From Candidatus Eiseniibacteriota bacterium (lineage in GTDB: Bacteria; Eisenbacteria; RBG-16-71-46), in assembly GCA_016178725.1 (NCBI GenBank), contig JACOSV010000026.1, positions 21,965 to 85,964 on the forward strand: a DNA stretch of 64,000 nt. The letters run 5' to 3'. The position numbers and the translations under genes were made by a program. Positions 30,817-38,619 of this stretch are shown piece after piece. Below the pieces are notes generated by a model. The model was given only the letters and a program-made list of their open reading frames with translations. It was not told the DNA's origin and did not search any database. Within the stretch, counting starts at the first letter, position 1; each line of letters opens with the position of its first letter.

Positions 30817-31206
30817 TCAGTTGCTGGTGACGGTGTGGTTCGTGCCGCCGCTGACGTTGATCCAGCGCACGGTGCCGCCGGGCTTGATCGTGACGGCATT
30901 CGGGCTGTAGGAGAGCGTGCCGCCCGGCCCGACGCTTACGAGCATGCTGTCGGCGCCGCCGCCCGCGACCGTGACCGAGCCCGCCATCCCGGTGCCGTGG
31001 ATCTGGCAGTGATAGCCGTACACGGCCGCATTCGCGAACACGTGCGAGTATGAGGCGCCGTTCACGAGCGTGCCCGAGTTGAGCTCGAGCGCCCCGCCGC
31101 CCCCCCCGCCGGCCGGGCTGGTCGACTTGCTGCAGCTGATCGCGATCACGAACACGCCCGCGAGCAGCAGGCCTAAGGCCGGCACCAAAAGACGCCTCAT
31201 CGTCAT
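30817..31206 (-). CDS. Lipoprotein with cupredoxin-like (type-1 copper) motifs in permuted order.
   Basis: AGGAGGA then ATG. Lipobox VIAISCSK. 'YGYHCQIHGTGMAGSVTV' (C-x2-H-x3-M) precedes 'AVTIKPGGTVRWINVSGGTNHTV', the strand that is normally N-terminal. A Gly6 linker is encoded by a C8/G8 homopolymer at 31100-31107. Confidence 0.5.
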   Translation of the reverse strand: MTMRRLLVPALGLLLAGVFVIAISCSKSTSPAGGGGGGALELNSGTLVNGASYSHVFANAAVYGYHCQIHGTGMAGSVTVAGGGADSMLVSVGPGGTLSYSPNAVTIKPGGTVRWINVSGGTNHTVTSN

Positions 31207-31358
31207 GCATCCTCCTAGGACGGTCTCGATGGATCGCGGCGGGGGGATCGGCCATTGAGATTGGGTTCGGGGCCCGGGAGAACCAGACTTTTCGCCAACC
31301 CGGTGCCCGGCCGCGCGGTTCGGGCCGCCGTTCATTCCACGGCCGCGGGCGGCCTCAC

Positions 31359-31550
31359 TCACTTCTTCCCGCGCCCCGCGGCCGACGGCGATCCGCCGCC
31401 GCGGGGGAGACGGCCCTCGCCCTGGAGCGAGCGGCGCAGCAGGAACTCGATCTGTCCGTTCAGGCTCCGCAGGTCGTCGGCCGCCCATTTCTGCAGGGCG
31501 TCGAACAGCGCCGGATCGAGGCGGAGCAGGAACGGCTTGCGTTCGGACAC
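31359..31550 (-). CDS. Arc-family (ribbon-helix-helix) DNA-binding protein.
   Basis: MSERKPFLLRLDPALFDALQKWAADDLRSLNGQIEFLLRRSL is the typical Arc-like RHH pattern. It lies 16 nt downstream of the SPFH gene on the same strand. Confidence 0.55.
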   Translation of the reverse strand: MSERKPFLLRLDPALFDALQKWAADDLRSLNGQIEFLLRRSLQGEGRLPRGGGSPSAAGRGKK

Positions 31551-31565
31551 GGAATGCTCACACGG

Positions 31566-32435
31566 CTACTGGTAGAGCGTGCCGGTGTTCACGACCGGCT
31601 GGGTGTGCTGGTCGCTGCAGAGCACGACCAGCATGTTGCTGACCATCGCGGCCCGGCGCTCGTCGTCGAGCGTGACGACGTTCTTCTTCGCCAGCTGCTC
31701 GAGCGCCATCTCGACCATGCCGACCGCGCCTTCGACGATCTTCTGGCGCGCGGCCACGATCGCGCTCGCCTGCTGGCGGCGCAGCATCGCGCCGGCGATC
31801 TCGGGCGCGTACGCGAGATGGCTGATGCGAGCCTCGATGATCTCGATGCCCGCCCGGGAGAGACGCTCCTGGATCTCCTTCTGCAGTTGTGTGGCGACCT
31901 CGCCGGTGCTGCTGCGCAGTGCCAGCTCGCCATCGACATGCGCATCGTACGCGTATGACGTGGCGAGGTTGCGCAGCGCCGACTCGCTCTGCACGTGCAG
32001 GAAGTTCTCGTAGTTGTCGACGTCGAATAGCGCCTCGGCGGTCTCGACCACCTTCCACACCACGACCGCGGCGATCTCGATCGGATTGCCGACGTGATCG
32101 TTGACCTTGAGCTTCGCGGTCTCGAAGTTACGGACGCGCTGCGAGACCTTGCGCTTGGTGATGAACGGGCTCATCCACTTGAAGCCCGGCGACTTGACGG
32201 TGCCGACGTAGCTGCCGAAGAGCTGCAGTACCTTGGCCTCGTTCGGATTGACGACGAACAGGCCGACGAAGCCGAGGATGTCGACCAGCCACACGACCAC
32301 GCTCGTGACGATGCCCGCCAGCGACTGGTGCTGCACCGACTGGATGACCGCGATTGGCGCGAGGATCGCGACCAGGAACAGCACGACCAGCATGAGTCCG
32401 CCCGACACCGGCTGGACGACGCGTTCGCGCATCAT
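31566..32435 (-). CDS. SPFH/band-7 domain protein (stomatin/prohibitin-like).
   Basis: Strong RBS AAGGAGG. N-terminal TM segment, then the SPFH core ([25 protein letters not shown]...). Confidence 0.8.
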
Positions 32436-32454
32436 GACGACCTCCTTCGATGGG

Positions 32455-32487
32455 GTGATGTCAATATGATATCACTTTGATATCGCC
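32455..32487. promoter_or_regulatory. AT-rich operator/promoter element with two TGATATC palindromic half-sites, in the SPFH-Arc / two-component divergent intergenic region.
   Basis: tgtcaataTGATATCacttTGATATCgcc. The two GATATC palindromes sit 11 bp apart centre to centre. Local AT content far exceeds the ~30% genome average. Confidence 0.45.
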
Positions 32488-32584
32488 CGTGTCCAGAGGA
32501 TTCAAGGAGGTCCCCGGCCGGGACGCGCTCGCGGGTCATGCCGGCGGTCGCCGTGCGGGCAAGGGGCTGCGGTAGAGTCCGCGC

Positions 32585-33832
32585 GTGGATCGACTGGCCG
32601 TGGAGTTGAGCGCCCTCGGCTTCGAGGCCCTGATCACGTGGCTGCTGGCGCTCGTCTACTGGACGCTCTGGTACCAGCAGCGTCGCTCCTATTTCGCGAC
32701 ATGGGCCGCGGCGTGGGCCGCATTCGGCCTCCGGCTCGGTTTCATCTCCGCGTTCGTGCTCACCCGCAGGGAGGTGTGGCTCTTCGCGCATCAGGCCGCG
32801 ACCGGCCTCACCGCGTTGCTGCTGCTCTGGGCGGCGCTGCAATTCTCGGTCGGCGCGGTGTGGCACCGTCGGTATCTCGCGCTCGGCGGGGCTGCGATCG
32901 CATGGGCGTGGCTGGCGATCTACGTGATTCGCGACATGCGCGCCGCGGGGGTCTCCGCCGCGTTGCTGCTCGCCGGCGTGACGCTGTGGACGGGCCTCGT
33001 GTTCTGGCGCCGGCGCGCGCGCGGCGACTCGACCGGCGCGACGATCCTCGCCTGGACCTTCACGCTTTGGGGCCTGCACCACCTCGACTACCCGTTGCTG
33101 CGTCCGCTGGGGAGCGGCGTACTCTACGGCGTCTTCGCGGACGTGCTGCTCATCGTCGCCGCCACCGTCGGCACGCAGTTCCTCGTGCTGGGCGACGGGC
33201 GTCGGGCGCTGGAGGCGCGCAGCCGCCAGCTCGAGCAGCTGACACGGCTCCTCCTCCGCGCGCAGGAGGACGAGCGGCGGCGGATCGCCCGCGAACTGCA
33301 CGACGAGGCGGGGCAGGTGCTCACCGCGGTGAAGATCGAGCTCGACCTCGAGGGAAACACCGAGGCGGGCCGCATGGTCGGTCGGGCCCTGGCGCAGGTG
33401 CGCGACGTGAGCAATCTGCTGCGCCCCTCCGTGCTCGACGATCTGGGACTCGTGCCGGCGTTGCGTGGACTGGTCGACGACTTCTCGCGCGGCACCCGCG
33501 TCGATGCGACCCTCACCGTGGGCGATCCGCTCGGCCCGTTGCCCGACGATCTCGAAGTCGTGATCTACCGGGTGATCCAGGAGGCGCTCACCAACGTGGC
33601 ACGTCATGCGGCCGCTCGGCGCGTTCAGATACGTCTCGAGGCCGATCGCGAGCGCGTGCGGCTCGCGATCGAGGATGACGGGCGCGGCGTCTCGGGCGAA
33701 CCTGTGCCACACCTCGGCCTGCTCGGCATCCGCGAACGGATCACGACGCTTGGCGGGAGGTTGCAGCTGGGCGGAGGCCCAGGGCGCGGATTCCGGATCG
33801 AAGCGGTGATTCCGACCGGAGGGAACGCGTGA
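32585..33832 (+). CDS. Sensor histidine kinase, NarL/DesK type (HisKA_3 + HATPase_c) with a 5-6 TM N-terminal sensor.
   Basis: Phospho-His helix: RRRIARELHDEAGQVLTAV. ATPase: NVARHAAA...IEDDGRGV...GLLGIRERITTLGG. The stop overlaps the response-regulator start as GTGA. Confidence 0.8.
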   Translation: MDRLAVELSALGFEALITWLLALVYWTLWYQQRRSYFATWAAAWAAFGLRLGFISAFVLTRREVWLFAHQAATGLTALLLLWAALQFSVGAVWHRRYLALGGAAIAWAWLAIYVIRDMRAAGVSAALLLAGVTLWTGLVFWRRRARGDSTGATILAWTFTLWGLHHLDYPLLRPLGSGVLYGVFADVLLIVAATVGTQFLVLGDGRRALEARSRQLEQLTRLLLRAQEDERRRIARELHDEAGQVLTAVKIELDLEGNTEAGRMVGRALAQVRDVSNLLRPSVLDDLGLVPALRGLVDDFSRGTRVDATLTVGDPLGPLPDDLEVVIYRVIQEALTNVARHAAARRVQIRLEADRERVRLAIEDDGRGVSGEPVPHLGLLGIRERITTLGGRLQLGGGPGRGFRIEAVIPTGGNA

Positions 33833-34485
33833 GCCGCGCGGCGCCGACCCGCGTGCTGCTCGCGGACGACCACAACCTGGTCCGTGCCGGGGTGCGGCGG
33901 ATTCTCGAGTCCCACCATGGCGTTCAGGTCGTGGGCGAAGTGGGTGACGGCGAGAGCGCGCTTCGCGCGCTCGATGCCACGCCCGCCGATGTGCTCGTGC
34001 TCGACCTGACGATGCCGGGCATGGACGGCTTCGAAGTCCTGCGGCGCGCGAGGGCGGCGCATCCGCGACTCCGCATGCTGGTGCTGACCATGCACACGAC
34101 CCCGGCGTACGTGTCGCGCGCGATCCGCGAGGGCGCCGACGGGTATCTGCTCAAGGACTCCGCGGTGCAGGATCTGATGACTGCGATCGGCAGCGTGATG
34201 GAGGGTCGCGCCTACTACAGTCCGCCGATCCAGCGCGAACTGGGTGAAATCCTGCGGACCGAGAGCGCCGGGCGGCGCCCGCTCGATCAGCTCACCGAGC
34301 GCGAGCGGGAGGTGCTGCGGCTCGTGGCCGCCGGACTTTCGACCAAGGAAATCGCCGGTCGGCTCGCGATCAGCGGTCGCACGGTCGAGAGCCATCGCGC
34401 CCGTCTGATGGGCAAGCTGGGGCTGCGCTCGGTCGCGCTGCTCACGCAATTCGCCATCCGCGAGGGAATGCTGGCGGATCCATAG
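33829..34485 (+). CDS. Response regulator, NarL/FixJ family (REC + LuxR HTH).
   Basis: VLLADDHNLVRAGVRR...VLDLTMPGMDG (the phospho-Asp lies in VLDL). C-terminal LTEREREVLRLVAAGLSTKEIAGRLAISGRTVESHR. Confidence 0.85.
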   Translation: MSRAAPTRVLLADDHNLVRAGVRRILESHHGVQVVGEVGDGESALRALDATPADVLVLDLTMPGMDGFEVLRRARAAHPRLRMLVLTMHTTPAYVSRAIREGADGYLLKDSAVQDLMTAIGSVMEGRAYYSPPIQRELGEILRTESAGRRPLDQLTEREREVLRLVAAGLSTKEIAGRLAISGRTVESHRARLMGKLGLRSVALLTQFAIREGMLADP

Positions 34486-34563: not shown

Positions 34564-35880
34564 ATGCCACAACGACGTCCGGTTCGTCATCCCGTCCTCG
34601 CGGCTCCGCCCGCGATCGACGCGCTGCGCGTGTTGAGCATTCACCATCGCACGGCGGCCCTCGACGACCTCGAGCGCATGGTTCTCCCGGCGACGACGGT
34701 CGCCGATCTCGGACGGCGATTCGGCGCGCGAGGGCTTCAGGCGGTCGTGCTTTCGACGTGCCATCGGACCGAGCTCTACAGCTGCGCGCTGCGCGCGGCC
34801 GACCATGCGCGTGCCGAGGAGATGCTGCTGGCGACGGCGCCGGGCGGAGCGCCGGCGCGCGAGCGCTTCATGGTGGCGCGCGGACGGTCCGCGGCGGAAC
34901 ATCTCTTCCGGGTCGCCGCGGGACTCGAGTCGCTGGTGCTCGGCGAGGCCGAGGTGCTGGGTCAGGTCCGCATCGCGATCCGCGTCGCCGAGGACGCCGG
35001 CGCCGCGGGGTCCTTCCTCTCCGCCCTGTTCCGCGCCGCGCTCCGGTTCGCGGGCCGCGCGCGCAGCGAGACCGCCATCGGCACCGGCGCGCTCTCCGTC
35101 GCATCGGCGTCGATCCGGCTGCTCGGCCGCGTCCACCCCGACGTCACCGCATGTACCGTCCTCGTCGTCGGCGCCGGCGCCACCGGACTCAAGGCCGCGC
35201 GCCAGCTCGCGGCCGAGCGTGTCGGGCACCTCGTCATCGCGAACCGCACCGCATCGCACGCCGCCGTCGCCGCCGAGTTGGGAGGCGAGGCCGTGCCGGT
35301 CGAGTCACTTCCCGAATGGCTTGCGCGTGCGGACGCGGTGATCGCCGCGGTCCAGGTGGACCGTCCGCTGATCACGGCGGAGGCCGTCGGCGCCGCGCGC
35401 GCGGGGATCGCTCGCCCGATCGTGCTGGTCGATCTGTCCCTGCCGCGCGCGATCGAGCCCGAGTGCGCGTCCGTCCCGGGCGTGACCCTGCACGACCTCT
35501 CGGGGCTCGAGCCGATCGTCGCGCACAACCGCGCGCGACGCGAGAGCGAGATCCCGCGCGTCGCCGAGCTCCTGGAGCGCGAGCTCGAGTGGTTCACGGC
35601 CCAGACGCAGGAGTCCATGGCCCGCCCCCTCGTCGCCGAGCTGCGGCGGCGCGCAGAGGCGATCCGCCGCGAAGAGCTCGAGCGGGCCGCACGGGACGGC
35701 GTGCACGACCGCGAGCTGCTGGATCGCGTCACGCGGCGATTGGTCGCCCGCCTGCTGCACGTGCCGAGCACGGCCCTGCGACGCGGCGATCTGCGGGCCG
35801 GCGCGCACGGACACGACCTGCGGTCGTTATTCGGTCTTCATGCGAACGATGACCCCGATGCGGTGGAGGGTCGTCCGTGA
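34564..35880 (+). CDS. hemA: Glutamyl-tRNA reductase.
   Basis: LSTCHRTELY (catalytic Cys). NADPH-binding VVGAGATGLKAARQL. The start is uncertain; the internal GTG near 34627 gives the canonical LRVLSIHHRTA N-terminus. Confidence 0.8.
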   Translation: MPQRRPVRHPVLAAPPAIDALRVLSIHHRTAALDDLERMVLPATTVADLGRRFGARGLQAVVLSTCHRTELYSCALRAADHARAEEMLLATAPGGAPARERFMVARGRSAAEHLFRVAAGLESLVLGEAEVLGQVRIAIRVAEDAGAAGSFLSALFRAALRFAGRARSETAIGTGALSVASASIRLLGRVHPDVTACTVLVVGAGATGLKAARQLAAERVGHLVIANRTASHAAVAAELGGEAVPVESLPEWLARADAVIAAVQVDRPLITAEAVGAARAGIARPIVLVDLSLPRAIEPECASVPGVTLHDLSGLEPIVAHNRARRESEIPRVAELLERELEWFTAQTQESMARPLVAELRRRAEAIRREELERAARDGVHDRELLDRVTRRLVARLLHVPSTALRRGDLRAGAHGHDLRSLFGLHANDDPDAVEGRP

Positions 35881-36824
35881 GCGCCGTCATCCGCGTCGGC
35901 ACCCGCGCCAGCGCGCTCGCACGCTGGCAGACCGACCACGTGATCGCGCTGTGGCGCGCGGTCGAGCCGCAGCTGGCTGTCGCAGTCCTCGACCTGACGA
36001 CGGCCGGCGATGACATGGCCGATGCGCCGCTCGAAGCCATGGAGGGCACCGGCTTCTTCACCTCGACGCTCGAGCGGGCGCTGCTCGAGCGCCGGATCGA
36101 CGTCGCCGTGCACAGCTTCAAGGATCTCCAGGTCGACGTGACGCCGGGACTCGACGTGGCGGCCGTGCCGCCGCGCGGTGCGGTGGAGGATGCGCTCTGC
36201 GCCCGCGACGCCCGGACGTTCGCGCAGCTCGTTCCCGGGGCGCGCATCGGCACGTCGAGCCTCCGGCGCCGGGCACAGCTGTGCGCGATGCGCCCCGACC
36301 TCGACTACCGTCCGCTGCGCGGCAACGTGCCCACGCGGCTCGAGCGTGTCGCGCGCGGGGATCTCGATGCGGTCGTGCTCGCACGCGCCGGCCTCGAGCG
36401 GCTCGGCCTGGCGGAGCGCGCGACCGACGTCTTTCCGGCCGAACGCGTGCTGCCGGCGCCGGCGCAAGGGGCGCTGGCCGTCCAGGTGCGCGCCGACGAC
36501 ACGTCGCTCGCACGACGCCTCGCGCGGCTGGATCACGCGCCGACTCGTCGCGCGGTCACGGCCGAGCGCGAGGTGCTCCATCGGCTCCGCGGCGGCTGTT
36601 CGGTTCCGGTCGGCGCCTTCGCGCGCACCGCGGGTGAGACGCTGACGGTGATCGCCGGCGTGTTCGCGACCGACGGCACGCGTGCCGTGCGCGTCGAGCG
36701 CACCGGGACCGAGCCGCTCGCAGTCGCCGCGGAGACGGCGAGCGCGCTGCTGGAGCGCGGCGCGGGCGAGATCCTTGCCGCGCTCTCCCGGGGTGCGCGC
36801 ATCGCCGGAGGCGTGTCGCCATGA
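35877..36824 (+). CDS. hemC: Hydroxymethylbilane synthase (porphobilinogen deaminase).
   Basis: IRVGTRASALARWQT...; cofactor-binding Cys region RLRGGCSVPVGAFA. GTGA overlap with hemA. Confidence 0.9.
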   Translation: MSAVIRVGTRASALARWQTDHVIALWRAVEPQLAVAVLDLTTAGDDMADAPLEAMEGTGFFTSTLERALLERRIDVAVHSFKDLQVDVTPGLDVAAVPPRGAVEDALCARDARTFAQLVPGARIGTSSLRRRAQLCAMRPDLDYRPLRGNVPTRLERVARGDLDAVVLARAGLERLGLAERATDVFPAERVLPAPAQGALAVQVRADDTSLARRLARLDHAPTRRAVTAEREVLHRLRGGCSVPVGAFARTAGETLTVIAGVFATDGTRAVRVERTGTEPLAVAAETASALLERGAGEILAALSRGARIAGGVSP

Positions 36825-37621
36825 GCGATCATCCCCTGCGCGTCGCGGTCACCCGGGACGAAGGACTCCACGGTCCTCTGGCCGAGGCGCTGCGTCGCCG
36901 CGGGCTCGATCCCGTGTCCTGCCCCGTCTGCCGTACGGTTCCTGCGCCGGACCCCGAGCCGCTCCGGCGCGCGGCGCGGGAGATCGGGCGTTTTCACTGG
37001 ATGGTGGTGGCGAGCCCGCGCGCGCTGGCGGCGATCATGACCGCGCGTTCCGGCGCGCCGCTGCCCGTCTCGCTCCGCACTGCGGCCGTCGGTGCGAAGA
37101 CCGCGGCGATGCTGTCGCGGGCGGGGGCCCGTTCGCCGCTCGTCCCGCCGACGGCCGGCGCGGCGGCGCTGATCGAAACGCTGCATGGGGCCGACGAATG
37201 GGCGGAACGGGACGTGCTCATTCCGCGCGCCCTCGACGGCGGCCGCGATCTGGCCGCCTCGCTGCGCCGATCGGGCGCGCAGGTCGCCGAGGTCGTCGCT
37301 TACCGCACCGTCACGCGACCGGCCGCCGACATCGCCCGCGCGTGGCGCGCCGCGCGACCCGAGGCGGTCGTGGTGGCGAGCCCGTCGGCGGCGCGCGGGC
37401 TGGTTCGTGCGCTCGGCGTCGACGAGATGCGCCGGCTCGCGTGCGTGGCGGCGATCGGCGCCACCACCGCCACGCAGCTCGAGGCCCTGGGCGTGCCCGC
37501 CACGATGTCCGCGCGCGCGGACCTCGACGCGCTCGCCGATCTGCTGGCCTTAGGGCCGCACGCGCATGGCGCCGGCGCCAACGGCCGCGGCGCCCCGGCG
37601 AGCGGAAGGGCCGGGTCGTGA
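36821..37621 (+). CDS. hemD: Uroporphyrinogen-III synthase.
   Basis: Position between hemC and hemB, HemD-like size (266 aa) and composition; ATGA overlap with hemC. Confidence 0.7.
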   Translation: MSDHPLRVAVTRDEGLHGPLAEALRRRGLDPVSCPVCRTVPAPDPEPLRRAAREIGRFHWMVVASPRALAAIMTARSGAPLPVSLRTAAVGAKTAAMLSRAGARSPLVPPTAGAAALIETLHGADEWAERDVLIPRALDGGRDLAASLRRSGAQVAEVVAYRTVTRPAADIARAWRAARPEAVVVASPSAARGLVRALGVDEMRRLACVAAIGATTATQLEALGVPATMSARADLDALADLLALGPHAHGAGANGRGAPASGRAGS

Positions 37622-38619
37622 GCTACCCCGTCCATCGCGGTCGCCGGCTGCGGCGCAGCGAGGGGTTGCGCTCCGTGATGCGTGAGTCGCGGCTCACGGC
37701 CGATCAGCTCGTGGCGCCGCTCTTCGTGCACGACGACGGCTCGGCGCGGCAGCCGATCGCCTCCCTGCCGGGTCACGCGCGGCTGTCGCCCGAGCTCGCC
37801 GCGGACGAAGCCGCGTCGCTCGCCGCGCTCGGGATCGGCTCCGTCCTCCTGTTCGGCATCCCGAGGGCCAAGGACGCCGACGGTTCCGGCGCGTGGGCGG
37901 AGGACGGCCCGGTGCCGCGCGCGATCCGCGCCATCAAGCGGCGCGCTCCCGGCCTCGTGGTGTGGGCCGACGTCTGCCTGTGCGAGTACACCGATCACGG
38001 CCACTGCGGCGTGCTCTGCGACGGCGCGGTCGACAACGACGCATCCTTGCCGCTGTTGGCCCGCGCGGCCGTCACCTACGCGCACGCCGGCGCGGACGTC
38101 GTCGCGCCTTCGGACATGATGGACGGCCGTGTCGCCGCGATCCGCGTCGCGCTCGATCGCGCGGGCGCGTCCGAGACCGTGATCGTCTCGTACGCCGTGA
38201 AGTACGCCTCCGCCTTCTACGGACCGTTCCGCGAGGCGGCGGGCTCGACGCCGCGCGCCGGCGACCGGCGCGGCTACCAGATGGACCCGGGCAACGTGCG
38301 CGAGGCGTTGCGCGAGGCGCACGCCGACATCGAGGAGGGCGCCGACGCGCTGATCGTCAAGCCCGGCCTACCGTACCTCGACGTGCTGCGCGCGGTGCGC
38401 GGCGAGGTGCGCGTCCCGGTGGCCGCGTACCAGGTCTCGGGCGAGTACGCGATGCTGCACGCGGCCGCGGAGCGCGGCTGGCTCGACCTGGAGCGCTCGA
38501 TGTGGGAGACGACGCTCGGGCTGCGCCGGGCCGGCGCGGACCTCGTGATCAGTTACTTCGCCCGCCCGCTCGCCGAGCGCATGAGCGAAGGGCGCATGAT
38601 CGCCGAGGCCGGGCGATGA
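37618..38619 (+). CDS. hemB: Porphobilinogen synthase (delta-aminolevulinate dehydratase).
   Basis: RLR.S...R....ADLV.PLFV; Zn-site cysteines DVCLCEYTDHGHCG; active-site Lys region. GTG overlaps the hemD stop. Confidence 0.9.
   Translation: MSYPVHRGRRLRRSEGLRSVMRESRLTADQLVAPLFVHDDGSARQPIASLPGHARLSPELAADEAASLAALGIGSVLLFGIPRAKDADGSGAWAEDGPVPRAIRAIKRRAPGLVVWADVCLCEYTDHGHCGVLCDGAVDNDASLPLLARAAVTYAHAGADVVAPSDMMDGRVAAIRVALDRAGASETVIVSYAVKYASAFYGPFREAAGSTPRAGDRRGYQMDPGNVREALREAHADIEEGADALIVKPGLPYLDVLRAVRGEVRVPVAAYQVSGEYAMLHAAAERGWLDLERSMWETTLGLRRAGADLVISYFARPLAERMSEGRMIAEAGR

Follow-up and report, generated by a model that had tools for sequence, protein, structure and literature searches.

The 149-bp spacer between a gene for an SPFH/Band_7 membrane protein and a divergent histidine kinase gene (positions 32436-32584) contains AT-rich palindromic repeats, and the question is which protein acts on them, if any. 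The window, i.e., the whole stretch of 64,000 nucleotides that was analysed, had previously been read from its letters only. This sequence-only reading described an AT-rich island with a duplicated TGATATC in a divergent promoter. It proposed an autoregulatory operator for the Arc-like ribbon-helix-helix (RHH) protein encoded by the second gene of the SPFH operon or, as another option, a target of the neighbouring NarL-type regulator. The flanking genes were as described there: SPFH, the 63-aa Arc-like gene, the kinase and the regulator were all found at their places (Table 1).

Layout of the locus and anatomy of the boxes

Table 1. Positions of genes, predicted promoter elements and repeat boxes in the window.
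Feature	Position	Strand	Remarks
Arc-like RHH gene, 63 aa, GTG start	31359..31550	-	15 nt after SPFH stop codon
SPFH/Band_7 membrane protein gene, 289 aa, first in operon	31566..32435	-	Pfam Band_7 E 2e-27
Ribosome-binding site GGAGG	32441..32445	-	5 nt before ATG 32435, 8 nt before ATG 32432
Putative operator, 36-bp pseudo-palindrome with three 8-bp boxes, 11-bp period	32453..32488	-	centre 32470/32471 (GAT|ATC)
Box 3, downstream, TGACATCA on minus strand	32456..32463	-	hexamer 32457-32462; over predicted transcription start
Predicted extended −10: TG (32474-32473), A, TATCAT (32471-32466)	32466..32474	-	consensus promoter scan
Box 2, central, perfect 8-bp palindrome TGATATCA	32467..32474	-	hexamer 32468-32473; coincides with predicted extended −10
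Box 1, upstream in gene orientation, CGATATCA on minus strand	32478..32485	-	hexamer GATATC 32479-32484
Predicted −35 hexamer TGGACA of the SPFH operon	32490..32495	-	consensus promoter scan
HisKA_3 histidine kinase gene	32585-33832	+	divergent from SPFH
Response_reg+GerE (NarL-type) regulator gene	33829-34485	+	after kinase gene

The GC content of positions 32456-32485 was 30%, the lowest among all 30-bp intervals of the 64 kb (mean 72%). Only three 30-bp intervals were that low, and all of them lay at the putative operator, so the AT-rich island is indeed the most AT-rich 30 bp of the window. On the plus strand, TGATATC was found at 32467-32473 and 32478-32484, 11 bp from start to start, and a third in-register copy, TGATGTC, at 32456-32462. 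The two copies one helical turn apart were thus recovered, but the array consists of three boxes, not two. The distance of the TGATATC pair from the SPFH ribosome-binding site was approximately 22 bp (about 20 bp in the sequence-only reading). The two arms of the pseudo-palindrome (32453-32472 and 32469-32488) were 80% complementary in a repeat search.

As a single 7-mer, TGATATC was not significant in the window (3 matches vs. 1.5 expected; 17 of 100 shuffles reached 3). The tandem arrangement was significant: TGATRTC-N4-TGATRTC with up to two mismatches gave 4 matches vs. 0.38 expected, and none of 100 shuffles reached this number. Further copies of the tandem motif had been named as something to look for, and within the window all four matches lay at the putative operator.

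A consensus promoter scan of 1.6 kb gave a sole sigma-70-like site, on the SPFH strand (TGGACA, 18 nt, TATCAT; 10/12 consensus matches, TG present; one site vs. 0.1 expected). Since the scan places TG-n-TATCAT at 32474-66, box 2 coincides with the predicted extended −10. Box 1 falls inside the −35/−10 spacer. The boxes therefore cover the spacer, the extended −10 and the +1 of a promoter that, like its start site, is predicted from consensus. Box 3 and the predicted start (at about 32459-32460) are about 15 nt before the GGAGG, which is conserved in relatives as AGGAGG. The SPFH open reading frame opens with two adjoining ATG codons (32435 and 32432). The NCBI model of an identical MAG protein starts at the second one, giving 288 aa, and this ATG has the more usual 8-nt gap to GGAGG.

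The description of the spacer as a divergent promoter was correct for the SPFH side, where the promoter holds the boxes, but the kinase gene has a separate conserved TAGAGT approximately 90 bp away. This hexamer, located 6 nt before the kinase GTG start (window 32573-32587), is a candidate −10 of a leaderless kinase-regulator transcript. The block CACGCCGGCACTCTACCGCAAT at the kinase start was conserved in the relatives L204, L206, and L207. The conservation of TAGAGT suggests that each of the divergent operons has its own promoter, some 90 bp from the other.

Two observations concern the wider neighbourhood. In the window (30817-31300, minus strand) and in L001, L203, L204, and L206, the RHH gene is followed by a gene for a small cupredoxin of the plastocyanin/azurin-like type; this placement was seen in Eisenbacteria relatives and not in other phyla. 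The cupredoxin ORF as called (30817-31488) overlaps the RHH gene, so that translation probably starts at an internal Met preceding a lipoprotein-like signal. The two-component system is directly followed by a haem-biosynthesis cluster (34564-38619) of GlutR/hemA-like, porphobilinogen deaminase-like, and further ORFs, with the same order in L206.

Conservation of the boxes at SPFH loci

By SPFH homologue alignment, 80 genome loci were retrieved (protein identity 55-74%), belonging to Eisenbacteria, Acidobacteriota, Gemmatimonadota, Gammaproteobacteria, Chloroflexota, Planctomycetota, Ignavibacteria, and others. An RHH homologue directly follows SPFH in 79 of the 80, and the site lies upstream of SPFH in 78 of these 79 RHH-containing loci. 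The site was not assessable in L033, the upstream DNA of which is cut off. The sequence-only reading had named conservation in related genomes as one point on which its operator could fail, and such conservation was found. The site lies 26-90 bp before the SPFH start, and in most loci its centre is 26-41 bp before the start codon.

The consensus of 75 aligned loci was GATATCA-aar-TGATATCA-yttt-GATATC, with a TTGACA-like −35 upstream. The central hexamer was exactly GATATC in 67 of the 75, with 1.4-1.8 bits per position. At least four of the six bases of GATATC were present in the equivalent of box 1 (-11 to -6 of the PWM) in 67 loci and in the equivalent of box 3 (+11 to +16) in 61 loci; close relatives keep box 3 as GACATC/GATGTC. 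The −10 was TATCAT, TATCAC, or TATCAA in 62/75 loci, and a TTGACA-like −35 (at least 4/6) was located at 16-18 nt in 46/75. When 671 kb of locus DNA was scanned with the PWM on both strands at a threshold of 15 bits, every site lay directly before an SPFH gene; elsewhere in the 671 kb, the best score was 12.9 bits. In close Eisenbacteria relatives, the operator/promoter forms a conserved island, while the rest of the spacer is variable.

The SPFH-RHH pair and the boxes were also present on a plasmid of Deinococcus sp. NW-56 and, adjoining purD, in Bacillus thuringiensis, where the small protein is annotated as 'HicB family antitoxin' (the B. cereus-group genes are WP_000660677.1 and WP_001085171.1). 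The Eisenbacteria genome OY970178.1 also carries the module. In Parabacteroides distasonis, represented by WP_005854106.1, the pair is accompanied by three copies of TAATATCA directly before the ATG, and the small protein is annotated as 'Arc family DNA-binding protein'. As judged from these alignments, conservation of the operator spans more than ten bacterial phyla.

These loci also bear on the option that the boxes are bound by the adjacent NarL/GerE-type regulator, in which case the two divergent operons would be coupled. In its favour, the window and the close relatives L041, L204, and L206 have the kinase and regulator genes next to the module in divergent orientation. Among the 80 genome loci, however, kinase/regulator homologues occur in four and are adjacent and divergent only in L041, whereas the boxes occur in about 79. 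L203, with an SPFH protein 83% identical, has a DinB gene instead and keeps the boxes. Moreover, the kinase gene has its own TAGAGT element, and the boxes do not resemble the NarL heptamer, TACYYMT. Overall, the two-component system adjoins the module only in close Eisenbacteria relatives; this option is unsupported, and we regard it as very improbable. There is still room for lineage-specific extra regulation elsewhere in the 149-bp spacer.

The pattern of conservation is likewise informative on whether the palindrome acts as a nucleic-acid structure, either a DNA cruciform or an RNA leader hairpin, as the 80% self-complementarity of its 36 bp might imply. What is conserved is the sequence (the invariant GATATC) and not the pairing. 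Agreement between mirror positions of the arms beyond the consensus was marginal, as a sign of a hairpin and of co-evolving specificity alike (408 vs. 393 +/- 9 expected, p about 0.05). An RNA would carry one arm only because the predicted start is inside the palindrome, and no Rfam family matched in the intergenic region (only noise, E above 3). A structural role therefore has next to no likelihood.

Two other readings of the motif were considered and rejected. Fur, Zur, and PerR boxes are contiguous 6-7-bp repeats, in contrast to GATATC hexamers spaced by 11 bp. GATATC as an EcoRV-type restriction or methylation site was dismissed since conservation at one gene's promoter across phyla is unlike a restriction-modification target.

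Presence of the boxes with and without the RHH gene

SPFH genes without an RHH gene had no boxes in five of five cases: L059, with an SPFH protein 69% identical, and L210-L213, more distant plasmid copies from Pseudomonas and Vibrio. In L059 (3259-4107), a Gemmatimonadetes MAG, the SPFH orthologue is intact (69% identity over the match), and the RHH gene and the operator are both lost. The C-terminus of this SPFH protein, TSDRGTQPVVNTSSSKSE, departs from the otherwise conserved C-terminal sequence.

Metagenome contigs were scanned for GATATC-N5-GATATC-N5-GATATC, blind to gene content, which yielded 120 loci. Three of them contained SPFH together with an RHH gene, and nine contained an RHH-family gene (profile E 2e-21 to 3e-9) and no SPFH. 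The RHH genes of these nine SPFH-free loci start 3-60 bp from the motif, and most are divergent from an unrelated 255-aa gene. Loci with RHH and triple GATATC but no SPFH include L156 (128-1176), L200 (2991-3930), L106, L142, L163, L164, and L186, in which the RHH gene is divergent from a conserved 255-305-aa protein without a Pfam match; a Fic-domain gene is located near that of L156.

In a two-by-two table of site and RHH gene, 86 loci had both, one had the RHH gene only, none had the site only, and five had neither (Fisher p = 1.2e-7, not corrected for phylogeny). The sole locus with only the RHH gene, Bosea L208, keeps one perfect TGATATCA. Across genomes, the site and the regulator gene thus co-occur and are lost together. 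The boxes follow the small protein and not SPFH, since they are absent from SPFH loci lacking RHH and present beside RHH genes lacking SPFH.

The co-occurrence has to be weighed against another explanation, a strong sigma-70 promoter (TTGACA, 17 nt, TG-n-TATCAT, AT-rich flanks) conserved as such, with no dedicated repressor. In its favour, the central box equals an extended −10 at most loci, the window included, with a TTGACA-like −35 at 16-18 nt. The bases T, G, T, A, T, A, and T of TGATATCAT in the central box are also required by the extended −10, so part of the conservation of this box is promoter constraint. However, the A at -13 (98%) and the C at -9 (95%) are left unexplained by the promoter consensus, as are the two GATATC-like hexamers that flank the centre at exactly 11 bp, one inside the spacer and one over the start site. 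The boxes also persist in Bacteroidota, directly before the ATG, although promoters of this phylum differ. Finally, they vanish without the RHH gene and recur beside RHH genes in other contexts. A promoter with no repressor of its own consequently has little chance of being the full explanation.

The triple pattern is not exclusive to the RHH family: 12 of the 120 motif-selected metagenome loci were RHH-linked, and about 96 had no recognisable link, many being contigs of 27-45% GC or tandem arrays. In another 12 of the 120, three copies of GATATCAACGC followed by (GAGACA)n lie inside a 255-aa replication-protein-like ORF (L100 950-1040, L089, L099, L128, L140, L151, L155, L158, L169, L172, L188, and L199). 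These arrays look like iterons in an initiator gene, unrelated to the RHH family. An integrative mobile element is suggested in L099 by a neighbouring Rfam int-alpA RNA. The locus L143 (8016-8353), on a contig of 40% GC, is a satellite-like tandem array with at least 20 overlapping triple-GATATC matches. On two contigs of 27-30% GC (L109 4289-4582 and L110 133-420), a 97-aa CopG/ParD-like ORF (…EIEFIVRLKGKQAKYLSDFVNQGYYATKSEVVRAGILEL…) is located beside triple GATATC and may represent a second RHH lineage on the same box.

The iteron-like arrays leave some weight to another binder, be it some other regulator of wide conservation or the RHH protein itself, joined by a partner, in the role of an activator or a partition-like element; the binder has been assigned by comparison. 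Nevertheless, the RHH gene alone co-varies in presence with the boxes across contexts, and boxes placed over −10 and +1 fit a repressor and not an activator. We consider another binder, or a role other than repression, quite improbable.

The RHH and SPFH proteins

The sequence-only reading took the second gene of the SPFH operon to encode an Arc-like RHH protein, and both profile comparisons and matches to Arc structures agree with it. The family profile aligned with P22 Arc by hhalign over 50 columns (91.7% probability, E 7.8e-7, 32% identity). Against the Arc entries of the PDB, it gave E values of 1.5e-7 to 2e-3 (pArc 1.5e-7, Arc 1.5e-3, full length). Of 75 family members, 60 matched Pfam Arc (PF03869) and 62 matched RHH_5; the window protein alone scored 15.3 bits against Pfam Arc, below the cut-off of 20.4 bits. 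In the 75 sequences, R10 of the N-terminal strand K5-x-F-x-L-R10 is invariant, and so are R28, S29, and N31 at the start of helix B. By hhalign, these four residues align with R13, R31, S32, and N34 of Arc, which are DNA-contacting positions in the Arc-operator complex. By these profile alignments, homology with Arc extends over the full length of the RHH protein.

The AlphaFold2 monomer model of the RHH protein (pLDDT 78) consists of one long helix (residues 13-44) and no strand; such a model does not bear on the RHH fold, an obligate, intertwined homodimer. Only a variable basic/Pro/Gly-rich tail follows residue 48, and no sensor domain was found in the protein. At least about 8000 homologues form the family (1875 clusters at 50% identity, E up to 1e-3), and all names given by their source are 'hypothetical protein'. 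In phage records, matches were close to nil (3 of 50,697). A link of strand residue 8 (L, A, or P) to the flavour of the operator was discarded, as the patterns follow clades and are confounded by phylogeny.

The SPFH protein was 100% identical to a Candidatus Eisenbacteria MAG protein, and more than 8000 homologues were 55-83% identical to it across phyla. Its best solved relatives were HflK structures (E about 1e-4). The match to the NCBIfam HflK model (E 2e-8) had 34 bits vs. a cut-off of 159, and judged by this score the protein is not an HflK orthologue. Neither the SPFH nor the RHH protein matched the PADLOC defence models. A type II toxin-antitoxin module, with the small protein as a HicB antitoxin (as WP_001085171.1 is annotated), found no support: the partner is a Band_7/SPFH protein, and the small proteins, of 55-66 aa, are the RHH core only.

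Proposed mechanism

We are fairly confident that the three boxes are the operator of the co-encoded Arc-like RHH protein, which would act in negative autoregulation through cooperative dimers blocking the promoter. The anatomy of the site, its overlap with the promoter by consensus match, the homology with Arc, and the fact that boxes and RHH gene occur together across phyla are observed features; binding, its stoichiometry, and repression are what we infer from sequence comparison. Of the two options raised by the sequence-only reading, it is the autoregulatory operator that gained comparative support: the boxes overlap the predicted promoter, are conserved upstream of SPFH at 78 of 79 RHH-containing loci, are absent from all five RHH-less loci, and accompany nine RHH genes without SPFH.

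Each two-fold symmetric RHH dimer would set its two-stranded beta-ribbon in the major groove of one palindromic box. With the 11-bp period, up to three dimers could line up on the same side of the helix and, like those of Arc, bind cooperatively. RNA polymerase would be excluded once the boxes are occupied, since spacer, extended −10, and predicted start all lie under them. The resulting self-repression of the operon would keep both of its products, SPFH and repressor, at a defined level.

A wider proposal, which we consider speculative and unlikely, is that the SPFH-RHH pair is a laterally spread pan-bacterial membrane module in which SPFH exerts feedback on the sensor-less repressor, either via sequestration of its variable C-terminal tail at the membrane or via FtsH-gated proteolysis. 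If true, the extent to which the operator is occupied would reflect how far the SPFH complex is assembled or the condition of the membrane, and the operator of three TGATATCA would be one of the bacterial cis-elements with the deepest conservation, on a par with CIRCE/HrcA.

RHH autorepressors acting on promoter-overlapping repeats are textbook examples of regulation (Arc, Mnt, CopG, omega, MetJ, and antitoxins). Out of the ordinary here are a cis-element conserved across more than ten phyla and the fixed partnership with an uncharacterised, highly conserved SPFH protein. It is unusual for a cis-element to be nearly invariant between Bacillus, Bacteroidota, and Eisenbacteria, and a non-exhaustive literature search found no description of the SPFH-RHH pair or its operator. 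The putative operator offers a testable regulatory handle on a widespread, uncharacterised subfamily of SPFH (stomatin/prohibitin/flotillin/HflK-like) proteins. The element could help in annotating these operons and predicting promoters in uncultured phyla, and repressor and operator together could serve as a compact part. The analysis also corrects annotations that name the small RHH protein a HicB antitoxin.

Comparison with known systems

For the SPFH partner, the control of lambda CII by HflK/HflC-FtsH serves as an analogy only, in which an SPFH protein is tied to the fate of a small transcription factor. That the SPFH protein might affect the stability or location of the RHH protein, as HflKC does for lambda CII, is pure conjecture.

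With type II RHH antitoxins, the system shares a small, probably autorepressing RHH gene placed second in a two-gene operon (hicAB, higBA). Unlike in those modules, the partner is a highly conserved SPFH membrane protein and not a known toxin. The N-terminal domain of HicB is absent, and only the RHH part gives weak matches to Pfam HicB, in 20 of 75 family members.

MetJ, CopG (pMV158), and omega (pSM19035) are RHH proteins, dimers of which bind short, often palindromic repeats and polymerise cooperatively over the promoter of their own operon. For MetJ, the tandem metboxes follow each other directly every 8 bp, and S-adenosylmethionine is required; the omega repressor reads heptads of 7 bp, and CopG a 13-bp element. 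Compared with these systems, the boxes presented here have an 11-bp period, and the RHH protein has no evident cofactor domain.

A close comparison is with P22 Arc (PDB 1par, 1arq; operator in Pant), an RHH protein of about 50 aa to which the RHH family profile can be aligned end to end and in which helix B likewise opens with the R-S-x-N turn. In the phage system, Arc dimers occupy subsites separated by one helical turn on the same DNA face, and Arc represses the promoter that its operator overlaps and that also drives arc itself. The Arc operator is 21 bp long and has two subsites, neither of which is palindromic in itself, vs. three 8-bp palindromes here. The base-contacting Q9 and N11 of Arc align with P/A/S and L/A/P in the RHH family. 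Arc belongs to a phage, whereas the RHH genes described here reside on chromosomes or plasmids in association with an SPFH gene.
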